Notes under the pieces: model-generated
What the model was told of the DNA's origin: nothing
Seen by the model: the letters and a program-made list of their open reading frames with translations, nothing else
Database searches by the model: none
Program-made: the position numbers and the translations under genes
Assembly (NCBI GenBank): GCA_001275005.1
Contig: JWZX01003346.1
Location: 1-59,856 of the forward strand
DNA: 59,856 nucleotides
Reading direction: 5' to 3'
DNA from: Chrysochromulina tobinii
Taxonomy: Eukaryota
Shown: in pieces, positions 20,371 through 50,812 of the stretch
How the letters are laid out: every line of letters starts with the position of its first letter
Position numbering within the stretch: the first letter of the stretch is position 1

Positions 20371-23049
20371 ATGGCGGCCGCCGCTCCAAACGAGCCGAAC
20401 CTGATCAGAGTGGACGGAGCACCGCCGGGAGGGCCGTCGGCAGCTCTACCTCGCTCTCCTGATGCCGCAGCCGTCGCGCGAAAGCTCAAGCAGGCGATCG
20501 TGCAGTTCATGCATGGCGATTCCGACGAGCGCCTCGTGGCTGCCAGGGCGCTGTACGACACGGCGGGCGTGAGCATCGTCATGTGCAGGCAGCTGCTACA
20601 GGAAGCGGGCGCGGCGCTCGTCGCGGGGCTCGACGAGCAGCTGACCAACGACAAGGCGTTCGTGCTCGTCGTGCTGCTCACGCTCAAGCGGATCGCCGGC
20701 CACCTGACGATGGAGGTGAACGATCTGAGAGTCGCGCCGCCGCTGGTCGCGCTGTTGCGGTCGTCCACAGCGTCACTCCGGCGCCACGCCGCCGCCTTGA
20801 TCGAGCTGCTCTGCGCCGAGGACGAGGCGGCCAAAAGCTTGCTCAACGCGGGCGTCGCTCCCGTGCTCTTGCGGCTCGCCCTCGGCGAGCGTGGTGATGG
20901 CGACGACGGTGGCGGCGGTGACGACGCCGGTAGCGGCGGGCAGGGCGGAGACGCCGATCGCAGCGGCGGCCACGGCCGCCGCCGCCGTGGCTGCAGCAGC
21001 GACGACGGCGCAGGCATCAGCAGCGGTGCCGCCGTGTTATGCGCATGCACGGTGCTATGCCGCCTAGCTGAAGACCGAGACACGCGCTATCAAGTTTCGA
21101 CTGCCTTTGTCGAGCACACGGGCCTCGTGCTCGCGCTCGTGGCGCCTCTCGAGTACGATGCGCCCGCGGAGGCCAAGCAAGCGCAGCAGCAGGTGCTCCG
21201 CGCCATCGCCGCCCTCGGGGTGATAGGAGAGTTCAAATCGTCCCTCGCGGCAGAGGGCAACTTCATAGGCCTGCTGTTCCAGCTGCGTGACTCGGCGATC
21301 GCGGGCGTGCCGGCGCTCGCGCACGCGATCGCGGCACACTGGGATGACGACTTCCTCGGATGGGCCTGGCAGACGTGCGCCTCGTGCAAGCAGGTGCGCA
21401 GGATGGCCACTCTGAGGGCTGACGAAGCTCTGAGGGCTGACGAAGGGCGCTCTTCTTCTCTTAATAGCCTCTCTCTCCTCTCCCCCGCTCCTCATCCTCC
21501 CTCCACCCTCCTCCCCCACCCCGCGCAGGTGGCCGCCGAGCTGATGCTCGACCCCGAGACGCCCATCGGGCCCGCCGACGCCTCGGGCGGCGTCGAGCGC
21601 TACACCGTACAGCTCTTCACGGCCCATCGGATCCTGAGGGAGTTCCTCAAGCAGGCACGTTGATTGCCACTGATGGCCTGCCGTGCATGCAAGTGCTCAC
21701 CACAGCGCTATCGGCTCCCCGTCTGCCAATTGGAAGGCGATTGCGACTGATGACCTACAGTGCATGCACGCGCTCACCACGACGCTCCTCTCTTCCTCAA
21801 ACAGGCCGATGAGGTGACGCATGGCTTGCTGCGCCTGCAGGCACAGCTCGATGAGGGCGTGGCCCTCACCGAGAGGTACGCCGGCGTGCTTCGTCAGCGC
21901 TTCGTCATCGGCTCCGACCCGTCGGACGCGCCGGCAGACCCCGACGCGCCGCTTTCCGCTCCACGCGCCTTCGAGGTGCACAACCGACAGCTGGCGCGCC
22001 AGCTCGGAGACCCGCGGCCCTCGGCATGCAAGTGCTCACTACGGCGCACCCTCGCGTCTCCCCACAGGTGCACAACCGACAGCTGGCGCGCCAGCTCGAG
22101 GCCTCCGCGCAGCAGGTGCGCACAAGCTACCGGCAGCTTCTGCTGCACTGCAGCCTGCTCCTCGACGGCGAGCGGACCGTGCAGCGGGCCGAGGGACACC
22201 TTCGCGAGCTCGACGAGCTCGTTCGCGCAGGGAAGGCGGTCGAAGTGACGTTCCTGTGGAAGCAGCAAGCACACGTCGCGCTGCGCCGGGCGCTCATCGG
22301 CCTTTCGCTTCGTCTTGAGCTCCATGTGCGTGCCCTTCTCGCCCAACGCGAGGGCTCCGGCTCGATGCTCGGGCTCGCGGAGCAGGTGCGTCTCGTCAAT
22401 TTCCTCTGATTGCCTCTGATGGCCTCTGATTGCCTCTGATTGCCACTCTCGATCGTATGGTGGAGCAGGTGCGTCTCGTTCATGGCCTCTTGATTGCCTC
22501 TGCTGATGGCCTCTGCTGATGGCCTCTTCTTGCACGCGATCTTGACCCTCCGGGTCGCGGAGCAGGTGCTCGAGGGGCTTCCGCTGCTTCGGAAGGAGGC
22601 GACGGCACTCGAGGGGATCGCCGACGCCGCCGACCGTCTCAAGAGGCGAGGCCTGGGCGAGGGCGGGGCGGGCATGGAGGGGGAAGCGGCCATCCCTGCC
22701 CCCTCCCCCTCCCCCTCCGCCTCCGCCTCCGCCGCCTCCCTTTCGTTTGCGTCCCGCTCCCGACCGGCGCGTACGCTCACCGGCGTGGCGCACGCAGCCA
22801 GCGCCTCCTCGTTCACAGTCTCGAAGCGCCCCCCGCGCCGTGCCGCCTCCGCATCGCGCCTACTCCACCCAGGCCGCCTCGGTGGTAGCCTCAGTGGTAG
22901 CCTCGGCGGCTGCAGTGGCGGCTGCAGTGGCGGCGTGGCCAAATCGCCGAGCGGCGCGACCGCGAGCGCCGACGCAGCCGCGGCGGGAGCAGCGGCGGCA
23001 GGAGTAGATGCGGCGGCAGGAGCGGCGGCAGCAAGCGCGAAAGGCAGCA

Positions 23050-23086
<37 letters not shown>

Positions 23087-25738
23087 GAGCGGCGGCGGCG
23101 GCGGCGGCGGCGGGAGCTGGCCATCCAGTGGGGGCTACCTGAATCCGATCTCGGGCTCCGAGATCATGCCCAAGACGACGCCGATCTCGGGCTCCGAGAT
23201 CATGCCCAAGACGACGCCGATCTCGGGCTCCGAGATCATGCCCAAGACGACGTCCCCCCGCCATGCCCCCGCGTGGCTCAGCTTGAGTCTGAGCCACCCA
23301 AGCCTCGGTCGTCCACTCACACCCTCGGTGCTCACCTACCGGTCGTTGCCGGCGCGTGAGCAAGCGGAGGTCGCGAGCGAGACGCGACTCGCCCTCGCCA
23401 TGGCAGCGCGGCGCCACGGCTCTGCCAACGTCCTACTCACGGCGCGGTCGGCTGCGGCCGACCGACCGAGCGCCGTACCGAGCGAGGCGGCGCTGCTCCC
23501 CGAGCGCCGTACCGAGCGCACCGACGGCGGCGCGAGTGGCGGCGAGGGCGAGGAGGCCGAGGGCGGTGGCGCTCGGTACGGCGCTGACGGCGAGCTTGGC
23601 GACGACGAGGGCGGTGGCGCTCGGCACGGCGCTCACGTGCGCTTCGAGTCCGACGAGACGAAACCATCGATGACGAAACCATCGATGACGAACCCATCGA
23701 TGACGAAACCATCGATGACGAACCCATCGATGACGAAACCATCGATGACGAAACCATCGATGGCACCACGGCCGTCCCAGGCACCAGCACCGCCGACGAC
23801 GCCCGGTCGACCCTACTCCGCGGGCCTGCTGCGAGCGCCCAACACGGCGCTGTCGAGCGGCCGCCCCACCTCGGCCGCGAGCACGCCCAACACGACGCTC
23901 GGTCGACCCGGCTCGGCCACGTCCACGCGCGCGAGCCTCGCGGGCGTCGTGCTGGGCGCGGGCACGGAGCCGCCGAGCTTCGCGAGCAAGCAGAGGCTCG
24001 CCACGCCCTTCCTCGCGTCCGACCCGCATGAGCGCCGTCGACGACGCCAGATGAGCGCCCCTGGCGAGACTGAGCTGCGTGAGCTCGTGACGAACCCTTC
24101 CAAGCTCGGAGGTCGCGCGAGATTTCTTCGGCTGCAGCAGATCTTCGAGGGCATCGACGAGGACTCGTCGGGCGCGATCTCGCAGCGCGAGCTGCGCACC
24201 TTTCTCGACCGCGCGGGCCTCGAGGTCACCGATCGAGAGCTCACCTCTGATTGCCTCTTGATTACCTCTGATTGCCTCTGATGACCGATGATTGCCTCCC
24301 TCATCAGGTCTCCGATCGGGAGCTCACCTCATGGATCGACAACTCGGCATTCGACAATAACGGCGAGGTCGAGTTTGTCGAGTTCATCGAGGTCATCAAC
24401 ATGCTCAGCCGGCGCGCGCGTGCGTACGAGCGCGAGAAGGCGGTGCGCGAGTACGGCGGCGGCGGTGCGAGCCCGAATGGTGCCGAGCAGTCTCGACAGC
24501 AGGCGGCGGGGGCTGCAGGGCGTGAAGACGCCGACGCCGACGCTGACACCGACGGGGAGGGGGGGGCCGACGACGCCCCCTCCCCGCCTCCCGCCGCCGC
24601 CGCTCGGGCTGGCGATCTCGAGGAGCTCGAGATCGAGACGGTCCTCAATGAGTCCCGCCGCAGCGCCGCGCCGCCGCCGCGCTGTGCCGCGATGGAGAGC
24701 ACGCGCCGCAAGGCGGCTCTCTTGTCTTATTACCTGCCCACGACGCCCTTCCAGCCTATGGGCATCGTCCGCAGCGCCGCGCCGCCGCCTTTGCTCACGG
24801 CGGACGCGCGGGCGGACTCGGCGCACTTCCAGCCTGCCGATGCGGATGACCGGCCAGCGATTCAGATGCACCGGTCGGAGCTCGCTGATCTGTTCCCACA
24901 GGCGGCGCACTACGCCACCGCCCTCGTCATTCACAGCTTCGTCGAGCCCACGGCAGCTGGGGCGACCGGCGGCAAGGCGGGCGGAAAGGGCGGCGACGAC
25001 AGCACGTCCGACGGCGTCCCTCTCATCACCCTATTGCAGCTACAGGCTTGGTCTCGCCTGACCGGCTTCCCCGACCTCTCGCCCCTCTCGGGGCCCCAAT
25101 GGCTGACCGTCCTCCTGCGCCGGATGAGCGTGGTCCCGGGCACCGCCCTCGTACTTGGCCCTGACGGCGCACCCATGCTCACGGGCGTGCGCTGCGCGGC
25201 GCCCGCGGCACGTCTGCCCCCCCTCGCTGGCTGGGATGCGCTACAGCTATTAGCGTGGTTTCGGTGTGCCCGGCTGCTCGATCTGCCCGAGGCATCGCCG
25301 CGCACGCTCGCCCGACTTCCCCTCGATCAGCTGTGGCCGACGCTTGGCAACTGCGTCAGCCAGACGCGCTCGCTCATCGTCGCCAACGGCGGCCGGCTCC
25401 AGCCGCCACCCGCGCCATCAGCGGCGGCCGCGGCCGTGGCGCTCAAGGCGGCGCTCGCTGGGGGAGATCTCGCTGGGGGAGATGGCGAGGCCGGCGTGCC
25501 GTCCGTGGCGCGTGCCGCTGCGCCCGCGACGGCGCCCGGCGCTCGCGCAGCCTCGCGCTACGACCAGGGCGCCCGCGTCGAAGGCTCGGTGCTCCTCGAG
25601 CCTCCGCCGCCGCCACCGCCTTCGCATTTGGTCGCTGCCAAGCTCGCAGGCGCGCGCCACCGGGCGGTCATCAACGCCGCGCCTACGTCTCGCTTGCGGG
25701 CGCGCAACAGCCACATGCTGCGGCGCATCGACTCGTGA
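20371..25738 (+). CDS. Large ARM-repeat/low-complexity/EF-hand protein; exons 20371-21393, 21529-21654, 21805-21975, 22068-22385, 22566-24224, 24308-25738
   Basis: Five phase-0 introns (one GC-AG) chain five ORFs. ARM-like helices lie at the N-terminus. The EF-hand pair DEDSSGAISQRE and DNNGEVEFVEF is joined across the last intron. Confidence 0.7.
21655..21804 (+). mobile_element. GC-AG intron made of two tandem family-A units
   Basis: Units 21655-21736 and 21737-21804 each carry gattgc.actgatg.cct...tgcatgca.g.gctcaccac. The intron end ttcctcaaacag|gc copies the upstream exon end ttcctcaagcag|gc. Confidence 0.75.
21976..22067 (+). mobile_element. Introner-like intron (family A), 92 nt, with perfect 33-nt duplication
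   Basis: aggtgcacaaccgacagctggcgcgccagctcg occurs at 21974-22006 and 22066-22098. Core gcatgcaagtgctcactacggcgc. Confidence 0.85.
22386..22565 (+). mobile_element. Intron made of two tandem TGATTGCCTC-filler units (family B)
   Basis: An internal ggagcag|gtgcgtctcgt at 22462-22479 repeats the donor context. The intron end gggtcgcggagcag|gtgc copies the upstream exon gggctcgcggagcag|gtgc. Confidence 0.75.
23145..23252 (+). repeat. Coding tandem repeat, 36 nt x3 (PISGSEIMPKTT), each unit with an 8-bp hairpin
   Basis: ccgatctcgggctccgagatcatgcccaagacgacg; gatctcgg pairs with ccgagatc. Confidence 0.9.
23657..23761 (+). repeat. Coding tandem repeat, 15 nt x7 (TKPSM)
   Basis: gacgaa(a/c)ccatcgat units. 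Confidence 0.9.
24225..24307 (+). mobile_element. Introner-like intron (family B), 83 nt, with 25-nt duplication (2 mismatches)
   Basis: aggtcaccgatcgagagctcacctc versus aggtctccgatcgggagctcacctc flank a tgattgcctc filler. The intron splits an EF-hand pair. Confidence 0.8.
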
Positions 25739-26069
25739 GATGTGCTAGAGATGTGCGGCCATGCCCGATCGCTACACACATCGTTCGCGAGCGAATCTCT
25801 ATTGTACATGATATGGGCATGAAAGTGGTCGGCTAACGTAGTAGCACGATCGTTAGCCGTCCCGGGTAGGAGAGTAAGGAGGCGAGGAGGTAGTCAATAG
25901 TCAAGACAAATGAGACCGCAGGTGGCTTTCCTTTTTCGAACTTTTGGGGCATGCGTGATGCGAAACCGAAAGTCATTCGACTATCGACCCTTTTTTGTCC
26001 CGGCACGCCCGTCGACTCTCTGAAGAAAAAACGACCTCGTCCTCTCAGTGACACTTCTTGGACCGCGTC

Positions 26070-27680
26070 ATGGGGAATATCGTGAGCATCAATCTGCCGT
26101 GCTGCTCGGAGCGCAAACCAGGAAGGCCGGAGCTGGACCCGGAGTGGAAGGCCACCCTGAGGCCACCCGTGTCTCCGAACGCTCGCGGATTCTGGAACGG
26201 TTTTGGAGAGACAAATGCTCGCGCCAAATGCACCACGTGGGCACTGGATGGACTGCCGCCAAAGGAGATTGAGAACGCGCGCTCCCTCGCTGCGGAAATC
26301 CTCTCGTACGCGAAGCGTGGGCAATGCGATCGAATCGAGACGCTGTTGGATGCCGAGGGCCTGTCCTTTGTGGAGACTCGTTTGCTGCTGAGTGCTACTG
26401 ACCTGGCTAATGGAGACACCGCACTCATGCTTGCTACTCGGCATGGGCACACCAGTACAGCCTACTTCTTGATCGAGAGGGGCGCCGATCTCAGCGCCCG
26501 CAATCGCGACGGCATGACAGCTGCCCAGCTGGGCGAACAAGAGGCCGAGCGCAGGAGGAGCGCAGCACTTCCACCAGAACCTCCATCAAGGGCATCTTGG
26601 CATGAGCGCGTTGCCATGCCTGCAAAGATCCGGCCTACGAGAAGCCTCTCCGTGCCGCAAGGAGCACGGGCTGCCATGTCGGAGCTGACCACGGTGCTTG
26701 AAGATCAGAGCCCTCGACGTGGTGCTCGTGAGCATGCTCTTCATGGCGCTCTGCATGGGGATCAGAGTGGGTCTCAGCACGGCTCCGAGCCTTACTCCGA
26801 TCCCGGTTCTGAGAGCCGTTCGGAGCCCAGCCGAGCTCCAAACGGTTCTCAGATGCCCTTCTGGATCTCCAAGGAGCGGCCGGGCAGCGCCTCGTCCTCT
26901 CGATCGAGCAGCTTCTCGAAGGCGAACCCGTCGCCGCGCGAGGTCGTCATCGACTGGAAGAGCGCGCGCGGCGACCCCAACAAGCCCATGAACATCTCCG
27001 TCAAGGACCTCGCCAAGAGGCTCAGCAGCGACAGTGACATCGCGGGCGAGGGCGGCGGGCCGGAGGCGGAGGCCGACATGGCCTTCCTCGTCCGGTCCTC
27101 TGGAAGCGCGACTCCGACAGAGACGAGCGAGAGCCTGAGCTACGCGGAGCGAGCGAGGGTCGCCGTCGAGCGACGCAAGTATGACGAGATCCGGCGTAAG
27201 AACGGCCTGGCCAGTGGGCCGACCTCGAGCACTACGACGTCGAGGACTGGCTCGAGGCATGGCTCGCGGACGAATAGCTTCTCCAAGAGCGGCGCGACGG
27301 TGGTGGAGGACGGGGAGTCAATCGGCGCTGCAGCGGCACGGGTCGCGCAACAACACGCCGAGTCGATTGCGTTGGCGTACGCCCGGCTGGTCGCGCAGCG
27401 GGATCGAGCTGACGATGAGGACGACGCGCACACGACTGCCTTGGCAGCCGAAGTGCACGCCGATGCTGACGCGCGCGTGGCGGCACGTGCGGCCGCTCAG
27501 CCGCCCTTGAGGGTCGGGCGCGTACCGCCGTCGCCACCTCCGCCGCCCCCGCCGCCTCCGCCGCCCCCGCCGCCTCCGCCGCCTCAGATGCATTTGAATT
27601 TGCCTGGGATCCCATTTCTCAACCGCGGGGTGCGTCACGCGGAGTCGTTCCCGATTCCGAAGAAGACTTCGGCGATCTGA
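26070..27680 (+). CDS. Ankyrin-repeat protein with probable N-myristoylation and poly-Pro tail
   Basis: MGNIVS...CC, ankyrin GDTALMLATRHGH...LIERGADLSARNRDGMTA and a poly-proline tract. Confidence 0.75.
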   Translation: MGNIVSINLPCCSERKPGRPELDPEWKATLRPPVSPNARGFWNGFGETNARAKCTTWALDGLPPKEIENARSLAAEILSYAKRGQCDRIETLLDAEGLSFVETRLLLSATDLANGDTALMLATRHGHTSTAYFLIERGADLSARNRDGMTAAQLGEQEAERRRSAALPPEPPSRASWHERVAMPAKIRPTRSLSVPQGARAAMSELTTVLEDQSPRRGAREHALHGALHGDQSGSQHGSEPYSDPGSESRSEPSRAPNGSQMPFWISKERPGSASSSRSSSFSKANPSPREVVIDWKSARGDPNKPMNISVKDLAKRLSSDSDIAGEGGGPEAEADMAFLVRSSGSATPTETSESLSYAERARVAVERRKYDEIRRKNGLASGPTSSTTTSRTGSRHGSRTNSFSKSGATVVEDGESIGAAAARVAQQHAESIALAYARLVAQRDRADDEDDAHTTALAAEVHADADARVAARAAAQPPLRVGRVPPSPPPPPPPPPPPPPPPPPQMHLNLPGIPFLNRGVRHAESFPIPKKTSAI

Positions 27681-28099
27681 GATGCGATCCTGACATTACG
27701 ATGTCGCTCTTGGGCAGCTGAGGCTCGACGGCGCGCGCGCACTGGCGGCAGAGGCGTCGCGCGAGGGGACGTCTGTTACGACTAACATGCATGCCGTGCT
27801 TACATGCGATCGCACCGTAGCTGCTTACATGTACGATGTCCCGGTATTAGTCTGAAGTAGCGAAGTCATGTAGCAAGTACGCTGTCGTGTACGGTACGGG
27901 GTACTCGAAGCGGCCTAGCGGCCGTTTACCCCGGCGTACGCAGGGTCGTGTATACGCAATCGGCTGTGAGTTGTGGTTTTATGGCTGCGAGCGTTTCGTC
28001 AGCCTGTAGCAGCACCGACACCCGTGCCGCGGTCCCGCGACCGTCACAGCTACCTTCACACTGTCTCGAGGTCTGTGCATTGACCATTGTTTCCGGGAC

Positions 28100-29512
28100 T
28101 CACTGTGTGAAGCAGCCTCGGTCCTCAGTTCCCCGCGCCAAAAGCTGCTCCGTGAGGCTCGCGTTTTGAACGTGAGCCTGCCGGCGGCGGCGGGCCGCAA
28201 GAGCGCTCGCCATAACCGTCGCTCCGATGCAGACACTGGCGAGCATGCCGCCGATGAGCGCAAGGCCGCTGACGGCCGTTTCGCCGATCTCCCCGGGAGA
28301 TTCGGATCCTAGTATGGTAGTCGGCGGGAGCAACCTCTGAGTGCCCTCTCGAAAGGCGAGGCCCCACGGGGATGAAACCGTCGGTGGCGGCGGCGACGGT
28401 GGCGACGGCGACGGTGGCGGCAACGACGGTGGTGGCCGTGGAGGCGGCATCGGGGGTGGTGGACAGGGTGGTGGCGGCGACGTCGGTAAGGGTGGGGGCG
28501 GTGCGGGTGGCGGTGGTGGTGGAAGCGCGGGCGGCGGTGGTGGGGGCGGCGGTGGGGGCGGCGGACTTGGTGGGGGTGGAAGAGGTGGAGGAGGCGGCGG
28601 TAGCGACGGTGGCGATGGTGGTGGAAGGGGCGGCGATGGACCCGACGGTGGCAAGGGCGGTGGCGATGGTGGCGATGGCGAGGCGGGAAAGGGGGGCGGA
28701 GAGGGTGGCACGTCTAGCGCATAGACGCGCACGTAGTCGATCAACAGCGTCGTCCCGGGCGCCTCCAGGCTCTTCTCATCTGGGGGTTCGCCGGGCCCGT
28801 TGCCACCCACTGCAAGGTTCAAAATGAAGTACATGGGTGCGACGTATGGGTACTGGTCGGTTTGGCTCGTCGCAGTGAGGCTAGCGTCAGCCGCGCGTGC
28901 ATAGCTCCATATTGGCGCGGCGTCCTCATCAAAATAAAAGGAGACCTCATCCGGAGTCCATCGCAGCCACCAAGTGTGCCAACCGGGCTGTGCGTCGTCG
29001 AGAGGGCCGAGCTCCGCACATCCTCCGGCAAGCGGATCCTTCGTGCCCCAGCTGTGCATGTTATTGTGCACACAGGAACATGTGTTGCGGCCGCGGCGGC
29101 GGCCAAAGACCTCCATGATATCGATTTCGCCGCACGTTGGCCATCCCACCTCGTGCACATTCGAGCCCAACATCCAGAAGGCTGGCCACAGGCCTTTCAG
29201 GCACGGGGCGTTCATGCGCGCCTCCACGACGCCAAAGGTGAACTCGAAGAGGCGGTACGTGGAAATACGGGACGACAGGATCAAATTCGACTCGGGGTCG
29301 CGGATTGCCGTGATGGACAACACTCCGTCGCGTAACGACGTAGTGCGGGCTGTGTAGTTAGCCAGCGCTGAACTTGGGACGGCGTACTGCTGCATCTCAT
29401 CGTTCAGCGCTGGCGCCATCGATGCAGACGGCTCGTAGCGCCATTTACCCGCGTCAAGCGTGTCACCTTCGAAGTCGTCCGACCACACCATTTTGCCTTT
29501 CGGCGGCGCCAT
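28100..29512 (-). CDS. GH16 beta-1,3-glucanase (laminarinase)-like protein with Pro-rich stalk and C-terminal TM helix
   Basis: WSDDFEG, WPAFWMLG, WPTCGEIDIMEVFG (intact ExDxxE) and ILNLAVGG, then a poly-Pro stalk and hydrophobic helix. 5' end uncertain. Confidence 0.85.
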   Translation of the reverse strand: MAPPKGKMVWSDDFEGDTLDAGKWRYEPSASMAPALNDEMQQYAVPSSALANYTARTTSLRDGVLSITAIRDPESNLILSSRISTYRLFEFTFGVVEARMNAPCLKGLWPAFWMLGSNVHEVGWPTCGEIDIMEVFGRRRGRNTCSCVHNNMHSWGTKDPLAGGCAELGPLDDAQPGWHTWWLRWTPDEVSFYFDEDAAPIWSYARAADASLTATSQTDQYPYVAPMYFILNLAVGGNGPGEPPDEKSLEAPGTTLLIDYVRVYALDVPPSPPPFPASPSPPSPPPLPPSGPSPPLPPPSPPSLPPPPPPLPPPPSPPPPPPPPPPPPALPPPPPPAPPPPLPTSPPPPCPPPPMPPPRPPPSLPPPSPSPPSPPPPTVSSPWGLAFREGTQRLLPPTTILGSESPGEIGETAVSGLALIGGMLASVCIGATVMASALAARRRRQAHVQNASLTEQLLARGTEDRGCFTQ

Positions 29513-30305
29513 CTCGCAAAGCAAAAGCGCGTGAGTTTCGCACACGCGATGACATTTTTGACGAGCTGTGGGAGATTCAGATTGAGATTTACGTGAAGAC
29601 CATCGGACCAGGTGAAGCAAGCAAGCAAGCAACACTCGGTTGCGCTTGTTTAAATACTTGTTTTCGTCTAATTGCTTGCTTCGGACCACAGGTGAAGGGC
29701 TCTAGGCTGCAGCGCGAAACGGCGAAGGCTATAGATAATAGAAAGGCTAACGCACCGATGCGCGATGGAGCCTCCTCGCTGTTTGAGTACGGCCAAGTAA
29801 ATATCATCTAAAGTCGCAGCGATAACAGAGAGTGCACGACACGCACGCACCGCGCATATGCTCATGCACACAAAACACGCGTCTGTCGGCGCATGCCAAA
29901 CAGGCGCATCGACAACCTGGGATGGGTGGTCAAAAGATCTGGCCGCCGCGCGCAGCTCACATTACAGAGGCGGCGGCCTCTCGTCGAGAGCGGAGATCAT
30001 ATCGGAGATTCGACGTGACGGAAGCCGCGCGGAACCGAGATGCTCTCTGACATGGTAGCTAGAGCGTGTGGGGGGTGAGGCAGGGGGCGAGGCAGGGAAC
30101 CGAGGCGGCGTCGGCAGCACCGTCTGACAGAGGCGGCGACGACTGATCAGGGCAGATCATCATATGGACGGGCAGCACCGTCTGACACAGGCAGCGATCC
30201 ACGTTGATCTCCGGTGTTCGGACCCCACAGCACGGCCTTCACAGCACGGCCTTCACAGCACGGCCCTCGGCCGCGGCGGCGGCGAGGGCGGCGGCGCGCC
30301 GAGCT

Positions 30306-31097: not shown

Positions 31098-31303
31098 GGC
31101 GGCGCAGCAGACGAGAGGATGCAGGGTCCAAGCCTCCCCAAAGTTTCCGAAGTTGTTTTTGGGCGTTTCACTCGACTCACCCTGACTCACCTAGGATTGT
31201 CTTGACATGATTTGAATTTGACTTTGACTTGAGTCATGTCAAGTCTACATGAACAATGGACTTGACTTGACTTTCAATTACAATTGTTACTGGTGTGAAC
31301 GCG

Positions 31304-32051: not shown

Positions 32052-32097
<46 letters not shown>

Positions 32098-32419: not shown

Positions 32420-32549
32420 GTTATAACGGATGGCTGGCCTTTGAAGTGCGGGGGGGTGCCGTTTCATTCACACCGTTTTCAAAAGGTTCAAGTTGCGAAA
32501 CTTTTGGCTGCCCGAGCATCGAGTGGCCCGAGAAAACGTGCGATTCGGG

Positions 32550-35721: not shown

Positions 35722-36912
35722 ATGGCGTGCTGCCCCTTATACGCCGTTCAAACGAGCAGTGTGAAAATCATTGAGACTTGTGGTGCATTCAAAACAATCG
35801 CACGCCCCGGCTTGAACTGCTTGATCCCGTTCGTCGACAACATCGCGACCACCGTTTCGATGCGCCTCCAGCAGATGGAAATCGCCTGCGAAACGAAGTC
35901 CAGGGATAACGTACGCGTCGCAGAAAAGGAGATGGCGTGTGAATGCGCTGCCGCCGATGCGGACGCTGACCGCCGCCGCCGCTTCGCCGCCGCAACTCTG
36001 CCCCCGCAGGTGTTCTTGACCATCCGCGTCGCCATCCAGTACCAGGTCATCGCCAACGACGATGCGATCAAAGCCTCGTACTACCGTCTGACCAACCCGA
36101 AGCAGCAGGTCGAGTCGTACGTGTACGACGTCATCCGGTCGACGGTGCCCAAAATCAACTTGGACGACGGTGCGGCGACTTACCATAGATGGAACCGACC
36201 CCACCCGCTCACTCACGCTTGCCCCGCCGCCTTCGAACCACGCCACCGCGTGGGTGGAACGCTCCGACCCTCCCCCGCCTCTCAATACCCCCCGTCGTGC
36301 TTAGCGAGTCGTGCCTCGTGCTCGCCGCCGCGCCGCAGTGTTCACAACCAAGGAAGAGGTGGCGGCCGACATCCTCGAGAACCTCAGGGAGGCGATGAAG
36401 GACTTCGGCTACGAGATCCTCAGCACGCCCATCACGGACATCGACCCCAACCGAGAGGTCAAGAACGCGATGAATGAGATCAACAAACAGAAGCGGTTGC
36501 GCGTCGCGGCAGAGGACGAGGGCGAAGCCGTCAAGATTCGCTCGATTAAGGAGGCCGAGGCCGAGGCCCAACGCACGGAGATCACAGCTCATGCGGAGGC
36601 CCGAAGCCCAAGTACCTTCACGGCCAGGGCATCAGCCGCCAGCGCCAGGCTGTCATGGAGGGTCTGCGCGAGTCGTGCGCCGCGTTCCATGATGAGATCA
36701 AGAGCATTGATCCGAAGACGGTGCTCGACCTGATGGTTGTCACGTCGTACTTCGACATGATGAAGGATCTGGGCGCCCACGATAAGACGAGCGCCGTCTT
36801 CATGAACCACTCGCCCGGCGCACTGGAGGACCTCGCGGGAGCGGTCTCAAAAGGTTTCATGACGGGCCTGCCGGCCGCGCCGGGATTTGCGCAGCCGATG
36901 GGCCGACGCTGA
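35722..36912 (+). CDS. SPFH/band-7 hypersensitive-induced-response (HIR)-like protein, copy 1 (two apparent 1-nt insertions)
   Basis: CETKSRDNVF, YVYDVIRSTVPKINLDD, ITDIDP, RQRQAV and YFDMMKDLG. Introns 35911-36009 and 36170-36338. Extra C in runs at 36600-36602 and 36607-36609 breaks AEAKYL. Confidence 0.85.
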
Positions 36913-38714: not shown

Positions 38715-38961
38715 CCCTGGCAGGGAAGCAGCAGAGGTGGCTTTCCGACGAAGCCATTTTGCGAGCACTGTTTGGCAACACAGGCAACAGAAAGCCACCC
38801 CCTTGTTTCAGCTTGCCTCACGACACTGATTCTGTGAAGATGCGCTCACCAAGGCGCAACGAATCGGAAAGCCCACGACAAAAGCGTGGTCACGCCGCGT
38901 CTCGTCTCCTCGCCATTCAATCTACAAACTCAAGTCGACAGGTTCGCCTCCTTCTCTACGT

Positions 38962-41586: not shown

Positions 41587-42465
41587 GGTGGGCAACGCCG
41601 GCTGTGGGGACAACAGGAGGGGACAAGTGGCGCCCCTCTGCCGCCCCCCTCCCACTGCGTCCCACTATACCCAATTCGTCCCCCTCGTCGCCTCCTTCTG
41701 CCTCCCTCCGCCCTCGTCGGCTCCGACACACCGTCCGCCCTTCGGCGTGTGAATGGGAGCCATCTGTGAACGCTTCTCTGGCGCTACGTGCCCCTGTGTA
41801 ATGTACCTTCTGCCCGCCCGTCGGCAGCCGAGGCATCACCCCTTGCCTGTGTGCCTCTGTACCATTCAAGGCATTCACGTTGGCGCCCCGGGGCTCTTGG
41901 CCTCGTCGCCGCCGCGTGCGTGCCCCCCTGCCGTCGTTGATCGCGTGTGAATGGGTTCATCGTCCCCCGCATCCTCCGCGCCCGGTTGGTGTAGCTTATC
42001 GGTCTCCAGTCTCTCATGTTCGAGTAAACAACAACACAGTGTGTGATACCATGCCGAACATGCGTGTTAAACAAGTTTGAAGTAGTCGTCATGACTCATG
42101 TCGATTATATATTTGATTGATCCGGATACGAAGAAGCGTCTCAGAGTCAGACGCGCGTTATATACAACGCAGTACGCACTGTATGCCGGACTGACGACTG
42201 ACCACTCTGACAACCGCACTGCGGAACCGCCATGGGAACCTCACAGCATGAAATTTTTCGAATCCGGGAGACCGGAAATTTTTCGGATCGTATCCCCGTC
42301 CACCGCCGGCCTCTCGGGTCGGCGCGGGTCCCTCGACCCTCGTCGCGCGCGGTGTCGTCCCCGACCACCGCGTCGCCGCCATTGCATCCCGGGTCCGTCC
42401 ATGCCCAGGGTGCCGCTGACTGTCCCCCGTTCTCGACGCTCAGGTCTTGCCTCCACTACCGAACG

Positions 42466-45164
42466 TCATGGGTGCCAGGCGTCGCCGGCGCCGCGGAGGC
42501 CGTACTTGAGGCGTAATGCAAGCGACTGCATCAGGCTATCGAAGGCGTCCGGCGCGTGCGCGAGGATAAGCCTCACCTCAAGGGGAAGTGCTTCGCGCCA
42601 CAAGAGGCGCGTCCACACCGCGGCGAGGGCATGCCGCTTGGACATCAGGGCTGTCGTGTTGGCGGCCAGACGGCGCAGGATCATGGGCAGCTGTGGCAGG
42701 TCGCGAGGCTCGAGACGCACGGCGATGGCGTCCCAGTCGAGTAGAAGCCCTTCAAAGGCCTGCAGCACGGGAGGGTAGGCCGAGGCCTCGTCCCGCTGGA
42801 TGAGCACTGGAATGCACCCGAGGGCTGCGCTGTGGAACACGCGCATGCCCCAGCCGGTGCCACTCGGGCACAAGCAGAAGATGGTCTGGAGCATCTCGGC
42901 GTCGAGAGAGACGTACGGCGGAGGCGGCTTGAGGTCCGTCGCACGCAGCTGGAAGCCCTCCTCCTTGTGGAATCGGCGGTAGACCTCCCAGCGCACCCCG
43001 AAGGAGTAGTGGTCGAGGAAGCCGTGCTTCTGACGGCACTTGCGCCCGAGCTCGGCAAGACCGTTCATGTGATCGTAAGTCTGCCAGCAGATGGCGCCGT
43101 GGAAGAAGAGGAGCTTGGTGCGCCCGTGCCATGCCTTGTGGTTCGCGTCGGCGGCGGCGGCGCGCGCGGCGGCGGCTGGGTCGGTGGGGAATTGTCGGTG
43201 GAAGGTGAGGAAGGGCGACTTGGCGACAATGTGGTCGCGCAGCACGCCTGGAATGACGAGGTCGCGCGTGGCGTCGAAGCAACGCTCCGTCGGCACGCCT
43301 CCGAGCCCCGTGACGGCACCCCAATTGCTCAGAAGGATCGAGGCGCGCGTCTGGTCCCAGATCGATCCCCAGGGGTTCGAGCACCCCGCCGCGTCGCGCG
43401 TGTTCGACCAGATGTGATCCGCGCCGCCCGACCTGTTGAAGTATGGCCACACGCTGCGCACATATTGGTGCGCACGCCAGTAGACCTCCGGATTGCCCCA
43501 CGAGCCATGGAAATCCCACACGGGCACGTAGTAAAAGTCCGCACGCGAGGGATCCGTCGTTCGGTGCGCCGAGCGGAGCAGCGAGATGTGCACCGCTTTG
43601 AAGCCCCGATAGTCGGCTGGCCCGTGTGAATAGAAGGCCCATGTCGGCTCGGCCTTGAGTGCCAGGACGTTCATGCGGGCGGGCAGCTCATACACGTACA
43701 CGCACGGGCGCACGCATGTGCCCGCGGCAGCGCCCATGCTAGCAGCGCCGGCGCCGCCTTCAATGCCCGCCTGTGAATGCCCTCGTGTGAATTCGGCGCC
43801 GCCTTCAATGCCGCCGCCGCCTTCCTCGCTGGCTCCGCCGCCGCCGCTGCCTCGTGACGTGAGGCTTGAGGGGATGGTGGGTGGCGCGGCAATTCCCAGG
43901 TGGCCAGCGGGCAGCGCATGCAACGCCTCCGTGCTCGCCCTGAACGGCTCCAGCGAACAGTCGACCCCGTAATAGGGCGGTCGACAGAGGCAAAAGCCAA
44001 AGTCGCACCGGCCGCGGTTGAGGCAATCTGAGACACAAAACCATCTGGGATGCCTCTCGCACGCTGCACCAAAGTAGCCTGGGATGCACTGGCACGTGCC
44101 ACCCTGGCACACACCCCGCCCATTGCACCGGTCGGGGCATTGGTCCAGCGGCGAACCGACGCAATCAATGGTCGCGCCGCTGCCATCGCCTCGGGTCGGA
44201 TGGCGCTCACCTGATCAAGGAGGCCATCAGAGGTCATCCGAGGCTATACGAGGCAATCCGAGGCAAACAGAGGGCTCGGATGGCACGCACCCCTCGAGTG
44301 CTCGCACACAGGCTTGTCACAAAAGAAGGCGGACGAGTCGTTATAGACGCACCAGCCGTGATGGGTCTGCGGGCGTGCGAGCGCAGGCTGCACGTGCAAT
44401 TCGCATTGGGGACCCCATCGGTGGCGTGGACAGTCGCAACGACCCAAATCGGGCAGGCACACGCCCTCGTTTGCGACGCACTCGCGCGGGCACTGTTGGC
44501 GGCCCCAATGCCACGCATTGCCGGTGAGCACTGGGATGATGCGTGTGGCGCCGCCCATGGCGCGCGGCGGCATCGCCACCACCGGCGAGTCGCGCTCATC
44601 CCATCCTGACTGCTGCATGATGGCCAGAAGCTCAGCGTCGCGCTTGGACATGCCGCTCGCGTACCCGACCTTGTTGCCGTGGGCGACAATGGCGACGCCC
44701 CATGAGTCACGCACGTCCGCCGAGGCATCCGGACGATTTGCCGGGTGCGCCGCCATGTACGCGAGGTGCAGCGCGTATGCGGACGGCAGCGGTGAAAGCG
44801 GCTTGAGAGGGCCAACGTCAATGGCCCGAGCTGCACTCGTTGCCACAGCGCCAGCGGCGGCACTGGCGGCGCCCTCGACGATGGTAGCGCTCGTGTTCGT
44901 CGTCGGTTCTTCACGGTTGCGCGCACGCGCTTTTCTCTGCCGCCGCCGCCGCCGCCGTTGCTTCTCCGCCAAGAACCTGTCCTCGAGGTCGATCTTGCAA
45001 GTAGGGCCCGGGCACTGCTGTAGGGCCCGGGCGTGGCGCGCGAGCCGCACGGGCTCTACAGCAACGTGCGGCGGCGGCGCGGGGGACGCGGTGCGGGAGA
45101 ACAAGAGCCCCGCCGCAATCGCGCCGAGAGCGAAGCACAGCAATGTGCTCCTTGCTGAGGACAT
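42466..45164 (-). CDS. Exostosin-family (GT47) glycosyltransferase with EGF-like repeats; exons 45164-44291, 44210-42466
   Basis: N-terminal TM, EGF-like CxCxxGYFGxxC, VYVYELP, RTTDPSRADFYYVP and FCLCPSGTGWG.RVFHSAALGCIPV. Confidence 0.9.
44211..44290 (-). mobile_element. Introner-like intron (family B), 80 nt
   Basis: On the minus strand the start gtgcgtgccatccga resembles the next exon gtgagcgccatccga. Filler ggattgcctc...gatgacctctgatggcctc, ending gatcag. Confidence 0.7.
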
Positions 45165-45296
45165 TCAGCCAGATTCGCGGCCACACACACGCGCCCGTTT
45201 CGCGGCCACACACACGCGCCCGCCACACTCCGTTTCGAGGTACGGGTCCTCCACGCACGCGAGCATTGAAAACGAATTTGCTGTGAAAGTGTTGAG

Positions 45297-45377
45297 AGTC
45301 GTTTTCAGAGCTGACCTTTTCGAGAAAGCGGTCGGTGTGCGCGTGTCCGTTTGTCGATTCAACTGACCTTTTCGCAA
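45297..45377. repeat. CTGACCTTTTCG motif cluster; inverted counterpart at 52569-52748
   Basis: 45352-45377 reverse-complements 52573-52598 at 25/26 nt. Confidence 0.75.
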
Positions 45378-45870
45378 GGAAGCACCAACGATGTGTGAAT
45401 CGCCACCGGGATGCGACCGCACAGCGACAGTCTGTGTTTCGCGTGGGTCGATTGCTCGATTCCGAGTCTGACCGAGCTAACGGTTACCTTGTAGGGCTTT
45501 TCTCAAGAAAGCCGACCCGCGACCGAGCAGCAGGGTGAGGCCCGGAGGATCAAGCTCAAAGCCGTCTAGGTGTGCGCGCGTTCGCGCATATTAAAAATGC
45601 GCGTCGTTCTCGGTCGAGTCGGTTTACGATGATCTGAGCTGACCGTTTTCGCGTGCGACAGTGCACACACTAGAGGATGTCAGGTTTTCCCACTTGCACT
45701 CTTCATCCGATCTCAAATACTACGACACATCGGCGAGACGAACTGACTGAAGGTGCAGGCTCTCACATGCTGTCTCGTCGCCGTCTCGCGGCCTCAATGC
45801 CTCCTCCAGGAAACCCAGCGGCTCCCATTCGCATGCGCGTGATCGATCCGCACACGTCGCACAGAGCGCC

Positions 45871-46482
45871 TTACTGGGCGGGCCCTCCGCATGGATAGCC
45901 ACAGCACTCGGCCCCCATCGGCACGATCTCGCCCGAGCGCACGTACTTAGTTCCCCCGTGGATGTAAACCACACGCTGGTCGCACGGGCAGCAGAATGGG
46001 ACGCAGGTAGCTGGCCAGCAGAAAAAGAGTAAGAGGAGGCAGATGATGAGGGTGGTGCAGCCGATGAAAGTCTCCTCCTGATAGACGCCGCCGGGCGGCG
46101 CGCCTGGGGGCGGAACCGCCACCGAGAACCCCGGTTGCTGATTGATCACGATAGGAGCGGGGGGAGCCTGCATAATGATCTGGGGTGGCGGCGCACCATA
46201 CGGCTGCTGCCCATACGGCTGCTGCCCATACGGCTGCTGCCCATACGGCTGCTGCCCATAGGGCGCACCCATCATGACCGGCTGCCCCATCACCGGGCCC
46301 ACCGGCTGGGCCACCGGGGCCATCGGTTGGGCCATCGCGGGCATGCTGAACATGAACGAGCTTCCCGGCGGGTGGCCCGGCGGCACTGTGAGAGTAACCG
46401 GGCCCGATGGGGTCATTATCTGGAACTGATCCCCCGTATTCAGGCCCATTGGGACGGTCGCCTGGAACTGCTGCTCGTGCAT
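45871..46482 (-). CDS. Pro/Gln-rich protein with Cys-rich C-terminal membrane segment (BRI3/CYSTM-like)
   Basis: PYGQQ x4 and IICLLLLFFCWPATCVPFCCPCD. Confidence 0.75.
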   Translation of the reverse strand: MHEQQFQATVPMGLNTGDQFQIMTPSGPVTLTVPPGHPPGSSFMFSMPAMAQPMAPVAQPVGPVMGQPVMMGAPYGQQPYGQQPYGQQPYGQQPYGAPPPQIIMQAPPAPIVINQQPGFSVAVPPPGAPPGGVYQEETFIGCTTLIICLLLLFFCWPATCVPFCCPCDQRVVYIHGGTKYVRSGEIVPMGAECCGYPCGGPAQ

Positions 46483-46630
46483 CGTTCACGAGCAAGAGGG
46501 CAGCCTCCGCTTCCCGACAAACGAAGACGCCCTAGGTGTGACTGTGAAACCACAAAGAGCTTTGTATCTTGTGAACTTTCCTCCCTCGAGTGATTCACTT
46601 CTTAACTCTTTTCACACTTTTCGATAAGTC

Positions 46631-47479
46631 ATGAAGTCGGTCTGGCGCGGCCGCGCCCTCGCCGTGGCTAGCCACCTGCTCATCTGGGTCTTCGTCGCGT
46701 TCAACTACGTGCAGCACGCGGTGTGGCGCTCGCCGCCGTGGAGCGTGGGCGTGTTCGCTTCCTCGCACCTCCTGCTGGCGCTCTTTGCGCTGTCATGGTG
46801 GCAGGTCACATTCAGCCGTGCACAAGGGCCGCCGCAAGCGTGGTACGACTCCGTCAACCCTATGGCCGAGGTGTGCAAACGCACGGGTGTCTCGCTGCCT
46901 CCGCGGGCGCGCCTCTGGGACGATGAGCTTGTGCTCGGCTTCGACCACTTCTGTGGCTGGCTTGGCGTGCCGATTGGCTTGCACAACCGCAAGTTCTTCG
47001 TGCTGCTGCTCTTGTACGGTTCGCTGCTGACGGCTGTGGGGGGCTCACTCTCGCTCCACGACTATCTCGTCAAGTCGAGCGCCACTCCCCTTTTACCGTC
47101 CGCCGGTGGCCGTGGCGGCGGCGAGGACGGCCATCCGTCGCTCATGTCTTCGGTTATGGTTTTCGTGTCGCCGGCGCTGTTCCTGTACAGTCTGTACAGC
47201 GGCGCTGGCCAGCTCAGGCAGCTCTCGCTCGAGGTGTACACTACGCTCTTCGACATGGCCACCTGCGTCGTTCTCTTCGTCTTCCTCGTGTACCACGTGC
47301 GGCTCGTCTTGCGCAACGGCACAACAATCGACCCGATCACCTCCCGATGGGACGTCGGCCGCCGCGCGAACTGGGAGCAGGTCTTTGGCCACAAGGCGAT
47401 CTGGTGGCTTGTGCCCTTGCGAGGGTCGGGGCCGACTGTGGATGGCGTCAACTGGCCCGAAAGGCTGGAGCGGATCTGA
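46631..47479 (+). CDS. DHHC-family protein S-acyltransferase with variant DHFC motif
   Basis: Four TM segments, PPRAR, FDHFCGWLGVPIGLHNRKFF, NGTTI and WDVG...NWEQVFG. Confidence 0.85.
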   Translation: MKSVWRGRALAVASHLLIWVFVAFNYVQHAVWRSPPWSVGVFASSHLLLALFALSWWQVTFSRAQGPPQAWYDSVNPMAEVCKRTGVSLPPRARLWDDELVLGFDHFCGWLGVPIGLHNRKFFVLLLLYGSLLTAVGGSLSLHDYLVKSSATPLLPSAGGRGGGEDGHPSLMSSVMVFVSPALFLYSLYSGAGQLRQLSLEVYTTLFDMATCVVLFVFLVYHVRLVLRNGTTIDPITSRWDVGRRANWEQVFGHKAIWWLVPLRGSGPTVDGVNWPERLERI

Positions 47480-47618
47480 GACCAGCACAAATATCCGATC
47501 GTCACCGCCTAAGACGGCGAACGCTGTGACGCTGCCTCTGACGCCGGCGCCGTACGCATTGTGGGACCGCGCGAATAAGTCTAGAATCAATTAAGGTGGT
47601 AGCTCAAGATCCTAAATA

Positions 47619-48092
47619 CTAATCTGTCACTTTGATTGAAGGGCGCGCACAGCGTGCCCGTGCGCGGAGCGTTTTCGTTTTCTTCTTACCGCACACAATG
47701 TGCCGCATGCCGCTCTCAGACATCGGAAGAGGCTCAAGCCCGTCGTCATCTGAGTCGAGGTCGCAGCTGTCCAGACGCTCATTGACTGCGTGGGGTCTCA
47801 ATCGTTGTGGAGACGTGCGACGGTGTTGGGGCCGACGCCGTGGTTGCGGGAGTGAAGGGATGCACGTAGGCGGCGCCGCCTTTTTGTGGCCTAGCCTAAA
47901 TTTGGTGGCGTGCTGCTCGCACTTGAGGCGGCACGTCTCCAGGGCGTGCCAACCGGCCACCTGGAGCACTTGCAGCGACCGCAAGTGCCTTGCGTAAGAG
48001 CTGAGCAGGGCCCGGAGTGCATGCGGTTCGTCATCGCTCGACATGGGCGGGGTCGAGCCGGAGCACGATGTCGCCACGTCGGTATCGTCCAT
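47619..48092 (-). CDS. Hypothetical protein
   Basis: Plausible ORF from MDDTDVATS. No family recognised. Confidence 0.35.
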   Translation of the reverse strand: MDDTDVATSCSGSTPPMSSDDEPHALRALLSSYARHLRSLQVLQVAGWHALETCRLKCEQHATKFRLGHKKAAPPTCIPSLPQPRRRPQHRRTSPQRLRPHAVNERLDSCDLDSDDDGLEPLPMSESGMRHIVCGKKKTKTLRARARCARPSIKVTD

Positions 48093-48595
48093 TGGAGAGG
48101 TGCACTCCTTAGCTAGTGAAGCGCACGTCTCGCTCCGGTCGGCCAGCACGGGCACATGAGCTCGCATTTCTGGATCGAGACGTTCTTGTCTCGGAGAAAT
48201 CGACGAAACCTACGTGCGAGACGAAAACGTTGCAGGCGGGTCACGTCCCGGCCGCAAAGCTCTCCTCTCACACTGAAATCTTCACCACCGCAAGCGAGCA
48301 CGGTTCGACCTGGACGTTTATTCTGGACGAGAGGTCGAGAGCATAGTATCTGAGCATTCGGCGCCATCGGCGGCCCCCCCCGTCGGCCCTCTGCTATCCA
48401 CCGAACTCGGCTTCGGCCGTTCGTTTCTGCCAAACTGATTCATTACCCGATGCAGCAGAAGTTTGCGCACTGATCACGCACCCGCGGTGGATTATTATAC
48501 GAGCTCTTCATGTACGTTCGGCTGTACCCTCGAGGCTGTACATGTAACACAGACCACAACCGCACAAGTGTCGGAGAGAATCAAATGCGCGAGAA

Positions 48596-50812
48596 TCAAG
48601 TGCGCAGCAATGAGCCCCCATCTGGCTCCATGCCGGCCCGAATCTCCTCCAGACGGCGGCGCTGTCGCCCCTCGCTGTCGAAGTTGGCCGGCGAGAGCCA
48701 CGCCGAGAGCGCCGCGCCCACTCGAGGCCACTCGGCGTCAAGGATCGAGAACCACGCCGTGTCACGGTTGCGCTGTCGGACGACTGTGGCTTGGCGCGTC
48801 ACGCCTTCGAAGACGAAGCCAAGGCGCAGGGCGGCTGCGCGTGAGCGCACGTGGCGCGCGTTGCACTTCCACTCAACGCGCCGGTAGCCGTTGCTAAAGC
48901 TCCACTGGAGCATGAGGAAGAGCGCCTCGGTCGCGGGCGGCGTGCGAGCCAGTTGCGGCCCGAAGCTCAGATGGCCTATCTCAAGACATCCATGCGCGGC
49001 GGCGATGCGGAGGAAGGCGGCGAGGCCGAGGGCGACGCCGTTCACTTCGAGCGCGAAGAAGAGCGGGTCGGCGCTCGTCGTCTGTGGACCGAGCCATGCG
49101 CCGAGCGCCGCCGGCGAGTCGAACGGACCGTACGAGAGGAATGTCCAGTGCACGTCGCCCGCGCCGGCATAGGCGGCGTGGAGTGCGCTCGCGTGCTCCA
49201 AAGCAAGCGGCACGCATGCCACACAGGCGCCGCGTAGCGTCAGTCGGACCGGCGACGGCGGCGGCTTCCAGTCGGAAGCCAGTTGAGGCCCGATGGGTAT
49301 GCTGACGGCAGGCAGGCCGATGGGCATGCTAACGGCAGCAGAGTCGTGCACTTGCCACACGGGGGCCTGCCAGTTGGTACGCGGAGGCGTCGCGCTCAGC
49401 AGCGGAGCCGTCATGCCGCTCAGGCTGGTCTTCTGTCTGTTGAAGAGTGTGGCGGCCTCGGCAGGCGCCGTTACGGGCGCGCTCGATAATCCCACGCCTT
49501 CACCCACGCCTTTACCAAAGCTTTCACCGATGCCTCCGGCCACGATGCCAAAGTTGCTCGGATCGAGCCATGCACAATAGCAGCGCTCGATGGCGGGCCA
49601 CTCCGGGCGCGTGATGGAGAACACTGCCTGATCGCTCGTGCGACCCTTTAGGACGAACCGTTGGCGGAAGGTGACTTCATACGTAAAGCCGAGTCGCTGC
49701 GCAGCCCGCATGGCGGGCTCATTGTGAGGATCGCACGACCATTCGACACGACGGTAGCCGCACGCGAATGCCTCGCGGATCTGGAGGATCATCGCCTCGG
49801 TGCCCGCGGCGGCGCCTGCAATCCTCGGCGAGATCATGATCTCCGCAATCTCCGCGGTGCCTCCCTCTGGAGCGACGCTTATCAGCGCGCCAAGACCCGC
49901 CGCGGTGCCACTCGCAAGGTCGACGTACCTGATGACGGGGGCACTCAGATAGCATGAGGTGCAATCAGAGGCGATCAATGGCCCGTCGCTCGCAAGGTCG
50001 ACTTACACGCCGAAGTAGGCGCCCGTGCCGGCCTCGAGGCTCGCGAGGTACGCCCACAGCGCCTCGCGACTTGAGAAGCCGCTCTGGAAACTGTACGCCC
50101 AACGGCTGTGGCTTGGATCGTCTTGGAAGGCTGCAAAGAGCTCATCGCAATGCCTGTCTGCCTCGAGAGGCTCGACGCGCACGAATCGGCCGACGTGTGT
50201 CGCGCGGTGCAGCCGCTTTGGTGGCGCCCACAGCGCGTCCGACGCTGCGGTGCACAGGGTGGGCAGGTATTCATCGAGCACCTGGTGGCCGCCATGAGGC
50301 ACGGCGTGCAGGACCACATCCGCCATGCCGTCCACGTACAGCTGCGAGAGCCCGAAGCTCCTGACAGGGTCGTCGCGCGCCCAAAAGAGCACTGCCGGCA
50401 GCCGCGCGATCCTGGCGATCAAAGAAGTGTCCGTGAGCGACGGCGCAACCAGCACCAGCATGCGCACCATCATCGGGTGAGCGGCAGCAAATGCCACGGC
50501 CTCACCGCCGCCCCATGACTTGCCCATGATGACTGCGCTTGTGGCACCCGCATGCTTGTAGATGCCCAGGAGTAGCTTCTCCGTGTCCACGCTTGCCATG
50601 AAGCCGGGCTTCGTGGCGGCATTCGAGTGCAGGTTAGGCAGCAGCACGCGCAGACCCACTGTGGCCAACTCACGGGCAGCTGGCTCCCACTCTGTGATGA
50701 CGTCTAGGTTGGCGCTCTTGCCCTGTATGCACAGGACGAGAGGCGCCCCGGCGCAGCCAAAGTCTAGCGCGTCCACGGGACCGAGGTGCGTCGCGAGCTG
50801 CACGGCCGCCAT
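48596..50812 (-). CDS. Alpha/beta-hydrolase fused to two RimJ/RimL-type GNAT acetyltransferase domains; exons 50812-50007, 49928-48596
   Basis: Triad GKSWGG, DD and GGH. Two GNAT repeats (GYRRVEWSCDPHNEPA and GYRRVEWKCNARH...RNRDTAWFSILDAEW). Phase-2 intron 50006-49929 joins the ORFs within the first GNAT. Confidence 0.8.
49929..50006 (-). mobile_element. Introner-like intron (family B), 78 nt, with 18-nt duplication (1 mismatch)
   Basis: Intron start gtaagtcgaccttgcgag versus exon start gtacgtcgaccttgcgag. Filler tgatcgcctctgattgcacctc, ending catcag. Confidence 0.8.

Follow-up and report, generated by a model that had tools for sequence, protein, structure and literature searches.

Contig JWZX01003346.1 of the freshwater haptophyte alga Chrysochromulina tobinii (assembly GCA_001275005.1), the whole 59,856 nucleotides (nt) of which are referred to here as the window, carries four short introns (i1 to i4) that combine a copy of a neighboring exon edge with degenerate short repeats. 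A sequence-only reading of the window had described them as units of 78–97 nt that form a second intron class, referred to below by its repeat TGATTGCCTC, beside the introns of a "family A". Their coordinates, strands, and sizes hold, with 83 + 97 nt for the dimeric i1, 83 nt for i2, 80 nt for i3, and 78 nt for i4. The four are confirmed as real introns, i1 and i2 by RNA, i3 and i4 by frame restoration and colinearity with homologs, together with a database protein (P0181) for i4. Homologs of the window's proteins come from Prymnesium, Chrysotila, and Emiliania, and the 90% clusters include entries from C. parva and C. tobinii.

Introns i1 and i2 lie in a plus-strand gene (gene A, 20371–25738) that forms a single frame of 1575 amino acids (aa) once five RNA-supported introns are removed; a search with its last exon gave no longer homolog, which is weak evidence. 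The window was compared with the read runs X1, X2, X3, and X10 (RNA contigs) and X15 (DNA-like). Intron i1 (22386–22565, plus strand) is a dimer of units 22386–22468 and 22469–22565 and is spliced in X1 and X2, where 15 nt at the junction fit either side. Each of its two units opens with a donor head, GTGCGTCTCGT, that is also present at ~10 other loci, and continues with units of 10–13 nt. Intron i2 (24225–24307, plus strand) is composed of an exon copy, five units, and a shared tail, CCTCATCAG; it is spliced in X10 and unspliced in one X3 contig, and X15 coverage reaches 24303. The acceptor tail of i2 (24278–24307) contains TCATCAG, the reverse complement of the unit word CTGATGA, and perhaps arose by fold-back synthesis.

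Both remaining introns are on the minus strand. Intron i3 (44211–44290), in an exostosin GT47-like gene, contains degenerate units and ends in GATCAG; its retention would place a stop at codon 306, and its excision gives 872 aa with homologs colinear across the junction. Intron i4 (49929–50006) ends in CATCAG; i2, i3, and i4 share the ATCAG end that had been claimed for three introns. With i4 retained, a stop falls at codon 269; with i4 excised, the product of 712 aa is colinear with homologs, and the junction in P0181 is exactly the spliced one; read-through proteins also occur in independent assemblies. The donor of i4 in the window is GTAAGT with an in-frame stop, and a sister population has Tyr at that codon, like the exon copy, so the GTAAGT donor is likely a later improvement. 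Intron i4 is common to a population ~9% divergent in protein and is older than the split of that divergence. Its host gene (48596–50812, minus strand) is a fusion of an alpha/beta-hydrolase with two RimJ/RimL-type GNAT domains, for which most homologs look bacterial, and the fusion requires i4 splicing.

Introns i2, i3, and i4 copy the downstream exon at their 5′ end, with 23 nt and 2 mismatches in i2 (24225–24247 versus the exon start 24308–24330), 15 nt and 2 mismatches in i3 (44276–44290 versus 44196–44210), and 18 nt and 1 mismatch in i4 (49989–50006 versus 49911–49928). In i1 the copy is of the upstream exon and lies at the intron's 3′ end, where 22548–22565 repeats the exon end 22368–22385 over 18 nt with 2 mismatches and provides the 3′ AG. 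The earlier claim of a 15–25-nt copy in every unit thus stands except for unit 1 of i1, where the copy is weaker than had been stated and amounts to just 7–8 exact nt plus a degenerate match. Copies of at least 14 nt were present in just 19 of 9590 GT..AG pseudo-introns, and junction ambiguity at five RNA-confirmed introns that lack filler is 1–7 nt. The repeat motif TGATKRCCWC matches the window 17 times (0.82 expected; 0/100 shuffles).

Further loci were gathered by a metagenome scan with one 17-mer, which yielded at least 129 stretches; 12 overlapping or orthologous loci were excluded from every cluster count, and repeat clusters are present in 102 of 116 sequences, window included. A viral scan returned 29 single matches with 39–47% GC and no array, which were taken as chance, and seven metagenome seeds with non-coding flanks were likewise rejected as chance matches in other organisms. 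The i1 repeat is covered more than 100-fold by foreign contigs, and many such contigs cross the i2 tail and then diverge. We counted 88 non-seed array regions per 469 kb of seeded loci and ~5 in the 60-kb window; combined with a genome size near 59 Mb, as given in the accessible text of PMC4580454, this density suggests thousands of arrays in the genome. The largest array seen, a candidate large donor, has ~50 units (~500 nt) in one intron that ends in CATCAG (L120:1–677, minus strand). Between the orthologous low-GC loci L002 (888–1270) and L020, array length differs by 60 nt, and an unrelated block of ~400–450 nt has been replaced between common flanks.

A direct repeat of local sequence flanks 44% of 430 repeat clusters compared with 5.6% of 198 random controls, an excess that the sequence-only reading had required over shuffled sequence. 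Under stricter rules, the duplication is present at 198 of 415 clusters, comprising 121 monomers and 77 multimers. In the monomers, the duplication has a median of 26 nt (5th–95th percentile 14–59 nt), the period a median of 83 nt, and the filler between the copies a median of 53 nt; both copies are identical in 68 of them, and an exact GT..AG excision exists on the motif strand in 60 and on the opposite strand in 16. Fillers follow one order, from a donor head (GTGAGTCTCGTYAATTGCC at ~10 loci, GTACGTTGATTGCC at ~8) through 10-nt units to CTCCCTCATCAG or a family-A core with a pyrimidine tail, of which each filler holds a variable window: a head with units, units with a tail, or pieces from inside family A. 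Anchors are spaced by exactly 10 nt in 967 of ~1200 cases. No whole filler was common to two loci among 92 clean events, and in 30 of these 92 both splice sites lie within the duplicate.

The same anatomy extends to family A. Duplications flank 34 of its 48 cores, with an exact excision register in 23 of those 34, it has the shared head, and its strand agrees with that of the nearest repeat array in 43 of 45 cases. The suspected relationship between both groups is thereby borne out, and the division into two separate classes is not, since family A and the TGATTGCCTC class look like fragments of one source pool.

Twenty-eight events are isolated, with no other array within 150 nt, so their filler must have come from elsewhere. 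The acceptor derives from the filler in 6 of them (as in i3 and i4) and the donor in 6 (as in i1), both sites are inside the duplicate, as scored, in 5 (among which i2 is counted because its AG overlaps the tail), and 11 lack an exact register. When antisense events are set aside, 17 of 24 excise exactly, compared with 5.3 expected for random targets (maximum 13 in 2000).

The repeat had been described as always in the sense orientation, which is true of the four introns and not of the genome as a whole. A codon model that was correct in 120 of 122 confident leave-one-out calls assigned 159 regions as sense and 17 as antisense, the latter an upper bound because these calls include evident sense introns; among seeds oriented by Pfam domains, 21 of 22 are sense. 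Antisense insertions inside open frames measure 69 nt in L073, 84 nt in L052, 63 nt in L003, 48 nt in L008, and 57 nt in L009, all multiples of three, and translate to peptides such as AIRGNQ. The L073 insertion sits within a 1624-aa IQ/EF-hand frame and, with an antisense array in a SAP-domain frame of L084, is one of the sole two antisense cases that are oriented by Pfam. Sense units contain a stop (TGA) in every frame and antisense units are stop-free, so survivorship can explain much of the ~90–95% sense bias, which we regard as largely its product. The 24 sense and 4 antisense isolated events are, as a rough estimate, near the prediction of the two survival filters. A search for the antisense peptides gave 1388 matches, and of the best 150, 103 carry the peptide twice or more; these are short (median 190 aa) and probably spurious antisense open reading frames (ORFs), and most of the long matches looked up were low-complexity animal proteins, so the search was not used as support.

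The repeat is not mostly intergenic either, another condition under which the earlier proposal was to be abandoned. After removal of 10 loci, none of 79 seeds had non-coding flanks on both sides compared with 8.3% of random positions (P = 0.001), and insertion or retention therefore favors gene bodies.

At the junctions, the end of the target and the continuation of the filler share microhomology of 2–7 nt. Over both junctions it comes to 2.3–2.9 nt versus 1.0–1.2 nt by chance, with 2.31 versus 1.24 nt at the 5′ junction (n = 49) and 2.67 versus 1.0 nt at the 3′ junction (n = 39), both with 0/2000 permutations, and the excess persists in isolated events alone (P = 0.0055, n = 15, and 0/2000, n = 9). 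This supports the templated synthesis on which the sequence-only reading had speculated. Fillers of all six non-seed isolated events with identical duplicates already contain variant units, which favors many donors over one master, and 75% of 618 non-seed units fall outside the three commonest. An apparent signal that young copies carry canonical units, and hence stem from one master, was traced to seed bias (P = 0.15). Local templating in cis is not supported as a rule, with no rise in local unit similarity (P = 0.35); same-strand pairs less than 3 kb apart have rare units in common in 9–12% of cases versus 3.5% between loci, a weak excess. Among six locus pairs aligned in all, one empty site was found: L016 carries a family-A insertion of 78 nt, with a copy of 32 nt, that is cleanly absent from L017 (strains that differ at 59 of 4167 nt). 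None was found for the TGATTGCCTC class.

Our favored interpretation, held with some reserve, is that the introns likely form by microhomology-primed copying from existing introns into staggered gene-body breaks, with tandem duplication of the target, and that selection for splicing keeps the products. The layout to be accounted for is a target copy of 14–45 nt, filler drawn from a common pool of intron sequence that bears the repeat, and a second target copy. Offset nicks in a gene body would put the target segment on both ends, after which a free 3′ end may prime within a donor intron, at one of its repeat units or splice-junction words, copy 20–90 nt with slippage among units, and return by microhomology, perhaps through polymerase-theta-like or template-switch repair on donor DNA or pre-mRNA. 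Sense units, with their stop in each frame and branch-point-like CTGAT words, would persist in exons only if GT or GC and AG lie one insertion length apart, and stop-free antisense units only as peptides of 3n nt. Every survivor would turn donor, and local tandem duplication could then yield dimers like i1. What the data show directly is the anatomy, the splicing of i1 and i2, the microhomology at the two junctions, the variable filler windows, one empty allele, and insertion in both orientations; how the break is repaired, whether from DNA or pre-mRNA, and whether survivors feed back as donors is what we infer here. A bolder form of the same idea, which we put forward tentatively as possible rather than probable, is a transposon-free, autocatalytic intron factory in which existing introns, possibly as pre-mRNA, would supply the pieces that patch breaks in transcribed genes. 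As priming would use splice-junction words and a branch-point-like repeat, such a patch would match the register of the duplicated AG|GT and be spliced at once.

Several aspects of the data weigh against microhomology-primed copying. No de novo insertion was caught, the repair enzyme is only postulated, and the loci, seeded on one 17-mer, are a seed-biased sample. The reference library for the microhomology comparison was built from the same repeat family, and the recurrence of two or three conserved heads and tails suggests few founders. Many of the 51 of 121 monomers without an exact excision register lie within composite introns. The intergenic depletion requires an unexplained gene-body bias that could point to an RNA step, and adjacent arrays less than 200 nt apart agree in strand in 194 cases versus 1, which local duplication or strand-biased templating could explain. 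The L016/L017 site belongs to family A and has no outgroup polarity, 2 of the 32 nt differ between its duplicates, above strain divergence, so that precise loss is possible, and the insertion lies in an open frame where splicing is only putative.

In an explanation that we consider unlikely, a break would be filled by reverse transcription of a dedicated RNA template, either a telomerase-like small RNA or a non-autonomous retroelement, with reiterative slippage, so that both the number of units and the length of the long target duplications would vary. Recurrent heads and tails, runs of one unit, gene-body bias, and the constant 10-nt spacing would all suit it, as would the variable and long target duplications, a feature also expected of a retroelement without long terminal repeats (non-LTR) or a short interspersed nuclear element; duplications of 14–45 nt that vary in this way resemble those of target-primed reverse transcription. 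The fillers, however, have non-repeat sequence at either end and occur as head-type, tail-type, and internal windows, so that there is no single polarity or fixed end, and they lack poly(A). A small RNA or retroelement source, which had been proposed for a search, was not found: there was no reverse transcriptase family among 255 ORFs beside arrays, and Rfam on 4 loci gave sub-threshold matches only and none at gathering level. The diversity of even the youngest fillers and units also fits such a source poorly. Five units had no shared RNA fold (z −2.5 to +1.4).

It is less plausible still that old introns already had the minisatellite and that local "mirage" duplications over exon-intron boundaries gave the exon copies, which would leave few introns new. 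This account draws on the multimers among the duplicated clusters (77/198), the i1 dimer, the many events within composite introns, the sharing of rare units between neighbors, and the age of i4. It cannot yield isolated copy-filler-copy units that start exactly at the donor, as i2 to i4 and others of the 28 isolated events do, nor antisense exon insertions or the empty L017 allele, and local unit similarity is not raised. A family of introners of the miniature inverted-repeat transposable element (MITE) type, degraded by slippage, is largely refuted and very improbable. In its favor are the genic bias and a splice site that is brought along while the duplication provides the other, as in the introner of marine Chrysochromulina; yet in none of the four introns do inverted arms pair one end with the other (those present, of 7–10 nt, are chance-like or internal), the duplication is 14–59 nt and variable instead of 4 nt, and the ends are not fixed. 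No two fillers are identical despite many identical duplicates, which mark many copies as young. To an assembly artefact of repeats we can give almost no weight, although single-base errors appear to be present in the window, as do perfect duplications of 97–114 nt elsewhere in it: the artefact is refuted for i2, which is continuous in the X3 contig and covered in X15, and for i4, which is read through in independent assemblies, and the duplicates are mismatched.

Compared with known systems, microhomology-primed copying unites the mode of break-repair intron gain with a shared source like that of introners, and the family behaves neither as a MITE introner nor as a polar retroelement or a pure tandem duplication. 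With repeated sequence in spliced introns, a splice site from the duplication, and genic bias, it resembles introners in the broad sense. According to the accessible part of Gozashti et al. (10.1101/2022.06.06.494994), introner family 5 of Chrysochromulina sp. TARA has a 4-bp duplication, carries its donor, and takes the other site from the duplication. That family is likewise from a related haptophyte genus, consists of a repeated intron-forming sequence with a co-opted splice site, lacks terminal inverted repeats, and is biased to genes; as far as that text goes, it differs from our introns, which have a 14–45-nt duplication, variable chimeric filler, microhomology at both ends, and either or both sites co-opted. 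A review of staggered-break intron gain lists just 5 events of known origin, one with mitochondrial filler. Direct repeats flank those gained introns too, and filler is inserted at the break; in the present case, the filler at hundreds of sampled sites stems from a single repeat pool and lies between longer duplications.

Tandem duplication of an AGGT segment, in the accessible account of PMC3443670, resembles our 30 of 92 clean events with both splice sites within the duplicate, whereas here foreign filler separates the copies and most events take a filler site or sit in composite introns. Templated insertions of alternative end joining (alt-EJ) and synthesis-dependent microhomology-mediated end joining (SD-MMEJ), as well as patch-mediated tandem duplications, also join a tandem duplication with a microhomology-bounded templated insert, and the present inserts show microhomology at both junctions with an ectopic template; in what PMC7407515 makes accessible, donors are local or ectopic one-offs without intron-generating feedback. 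"Mirage" exon-boundary minisatellites are matched by multimers such as i1 that repeat an exon edge and splice site, but they are locus-specific, whereas here the filler is shared genome-wide and 28 monomers are isolated.

Read et al. are said to have described, in 2013, strand-biased 10–11-bp intronic tandem repeats in Emiliania huxleyi. These resemble the present repeats in haptophyte host, unit length, intronic position, and strand bias, and a link between them is conceivable. The feature described here is real and occurs genome-wide, and as far as we searched it is undescribed: we found no description of this intron family in a literature search that left most subscription journals out of reach, and the supplements of 10.1101/2024.06.04.597373 may list it. 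In the accessible part of the supplement to the 2022 introner screen (PMC9860276), C. tobinii and C. parva appear in the input list only.

The window holds further members of the pool. A two-part GC-AG intron at 21655–21804 (plus strand), with a family-A head of units followed by GCATGCAAGTGCTCACC, is spliced in X1, X2, and X10. A family-A intron at 21976–22067 (plus strand), in which 31 nt of the downstream exon are copied exactly, is spliced in X1 and X10, where 33 nt fit both sides. From sequence, 428–494 (plus strand) is a candidate family-A intron with a 22-nt exact downstream-exon copy, and 59102–59285 (minus strand) a putative 78-nt tandem of family-A head and exon copy. The candidate intron 18450–18641 (plus strand) has ~17 related 11-nt units (TGATTGCATGC) without a long exon copy, and its flanking frames join in phase. 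Just past the stop of the plus-strand gene that contains it, four 11-nt units of TGATTGCATGC type lie on the minus strand (19210–19252), an inverted copy of this intron's unit without flanking duplication.

Runs of (GACTT)n/(AAGTC)n occur near gene starts at 14864–14894, 19480–19516, ~31220–31270, 55800, and 57545; a pile-up of X15 to 4396 in bin 19300–19956, over such a run, suggests a genome-wide promoter-associated repeat. At 36602 and 36607, in a gene that reads as band-7 (SPFH)-like, one base each is absent from all four compared runs, likely an assembly error. At 54602–55288, stretches of 114, 108, and 97 nt are each perfectly duplicated in tandem with no filler between the copies, which is either real or an assembly artefact.

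The origin of new spliceosomal introns outside transposon bursts is a long-standing question, and break-repair and intron-copying models rest, in the accessible text of PMC3443670, on few cases. Hundreds of recent events were sampled in this genus, which likely contains thousands, and duplication, template, and junction microhomology are still legible in them; the unspliced antisense products serve as an internal control, and the alga has a small genome and is grown in culture. Chimeric introns of this kind would likely escape introner screens that work by similarity. The same process also puts short peptides into proteins. If the autocatalytic form of microhomology-primed copying is true, many of the introns in this alga may stem from it, and it could also account for the strand-biased 10–11-nt intronic repeats reported from Emiliania.

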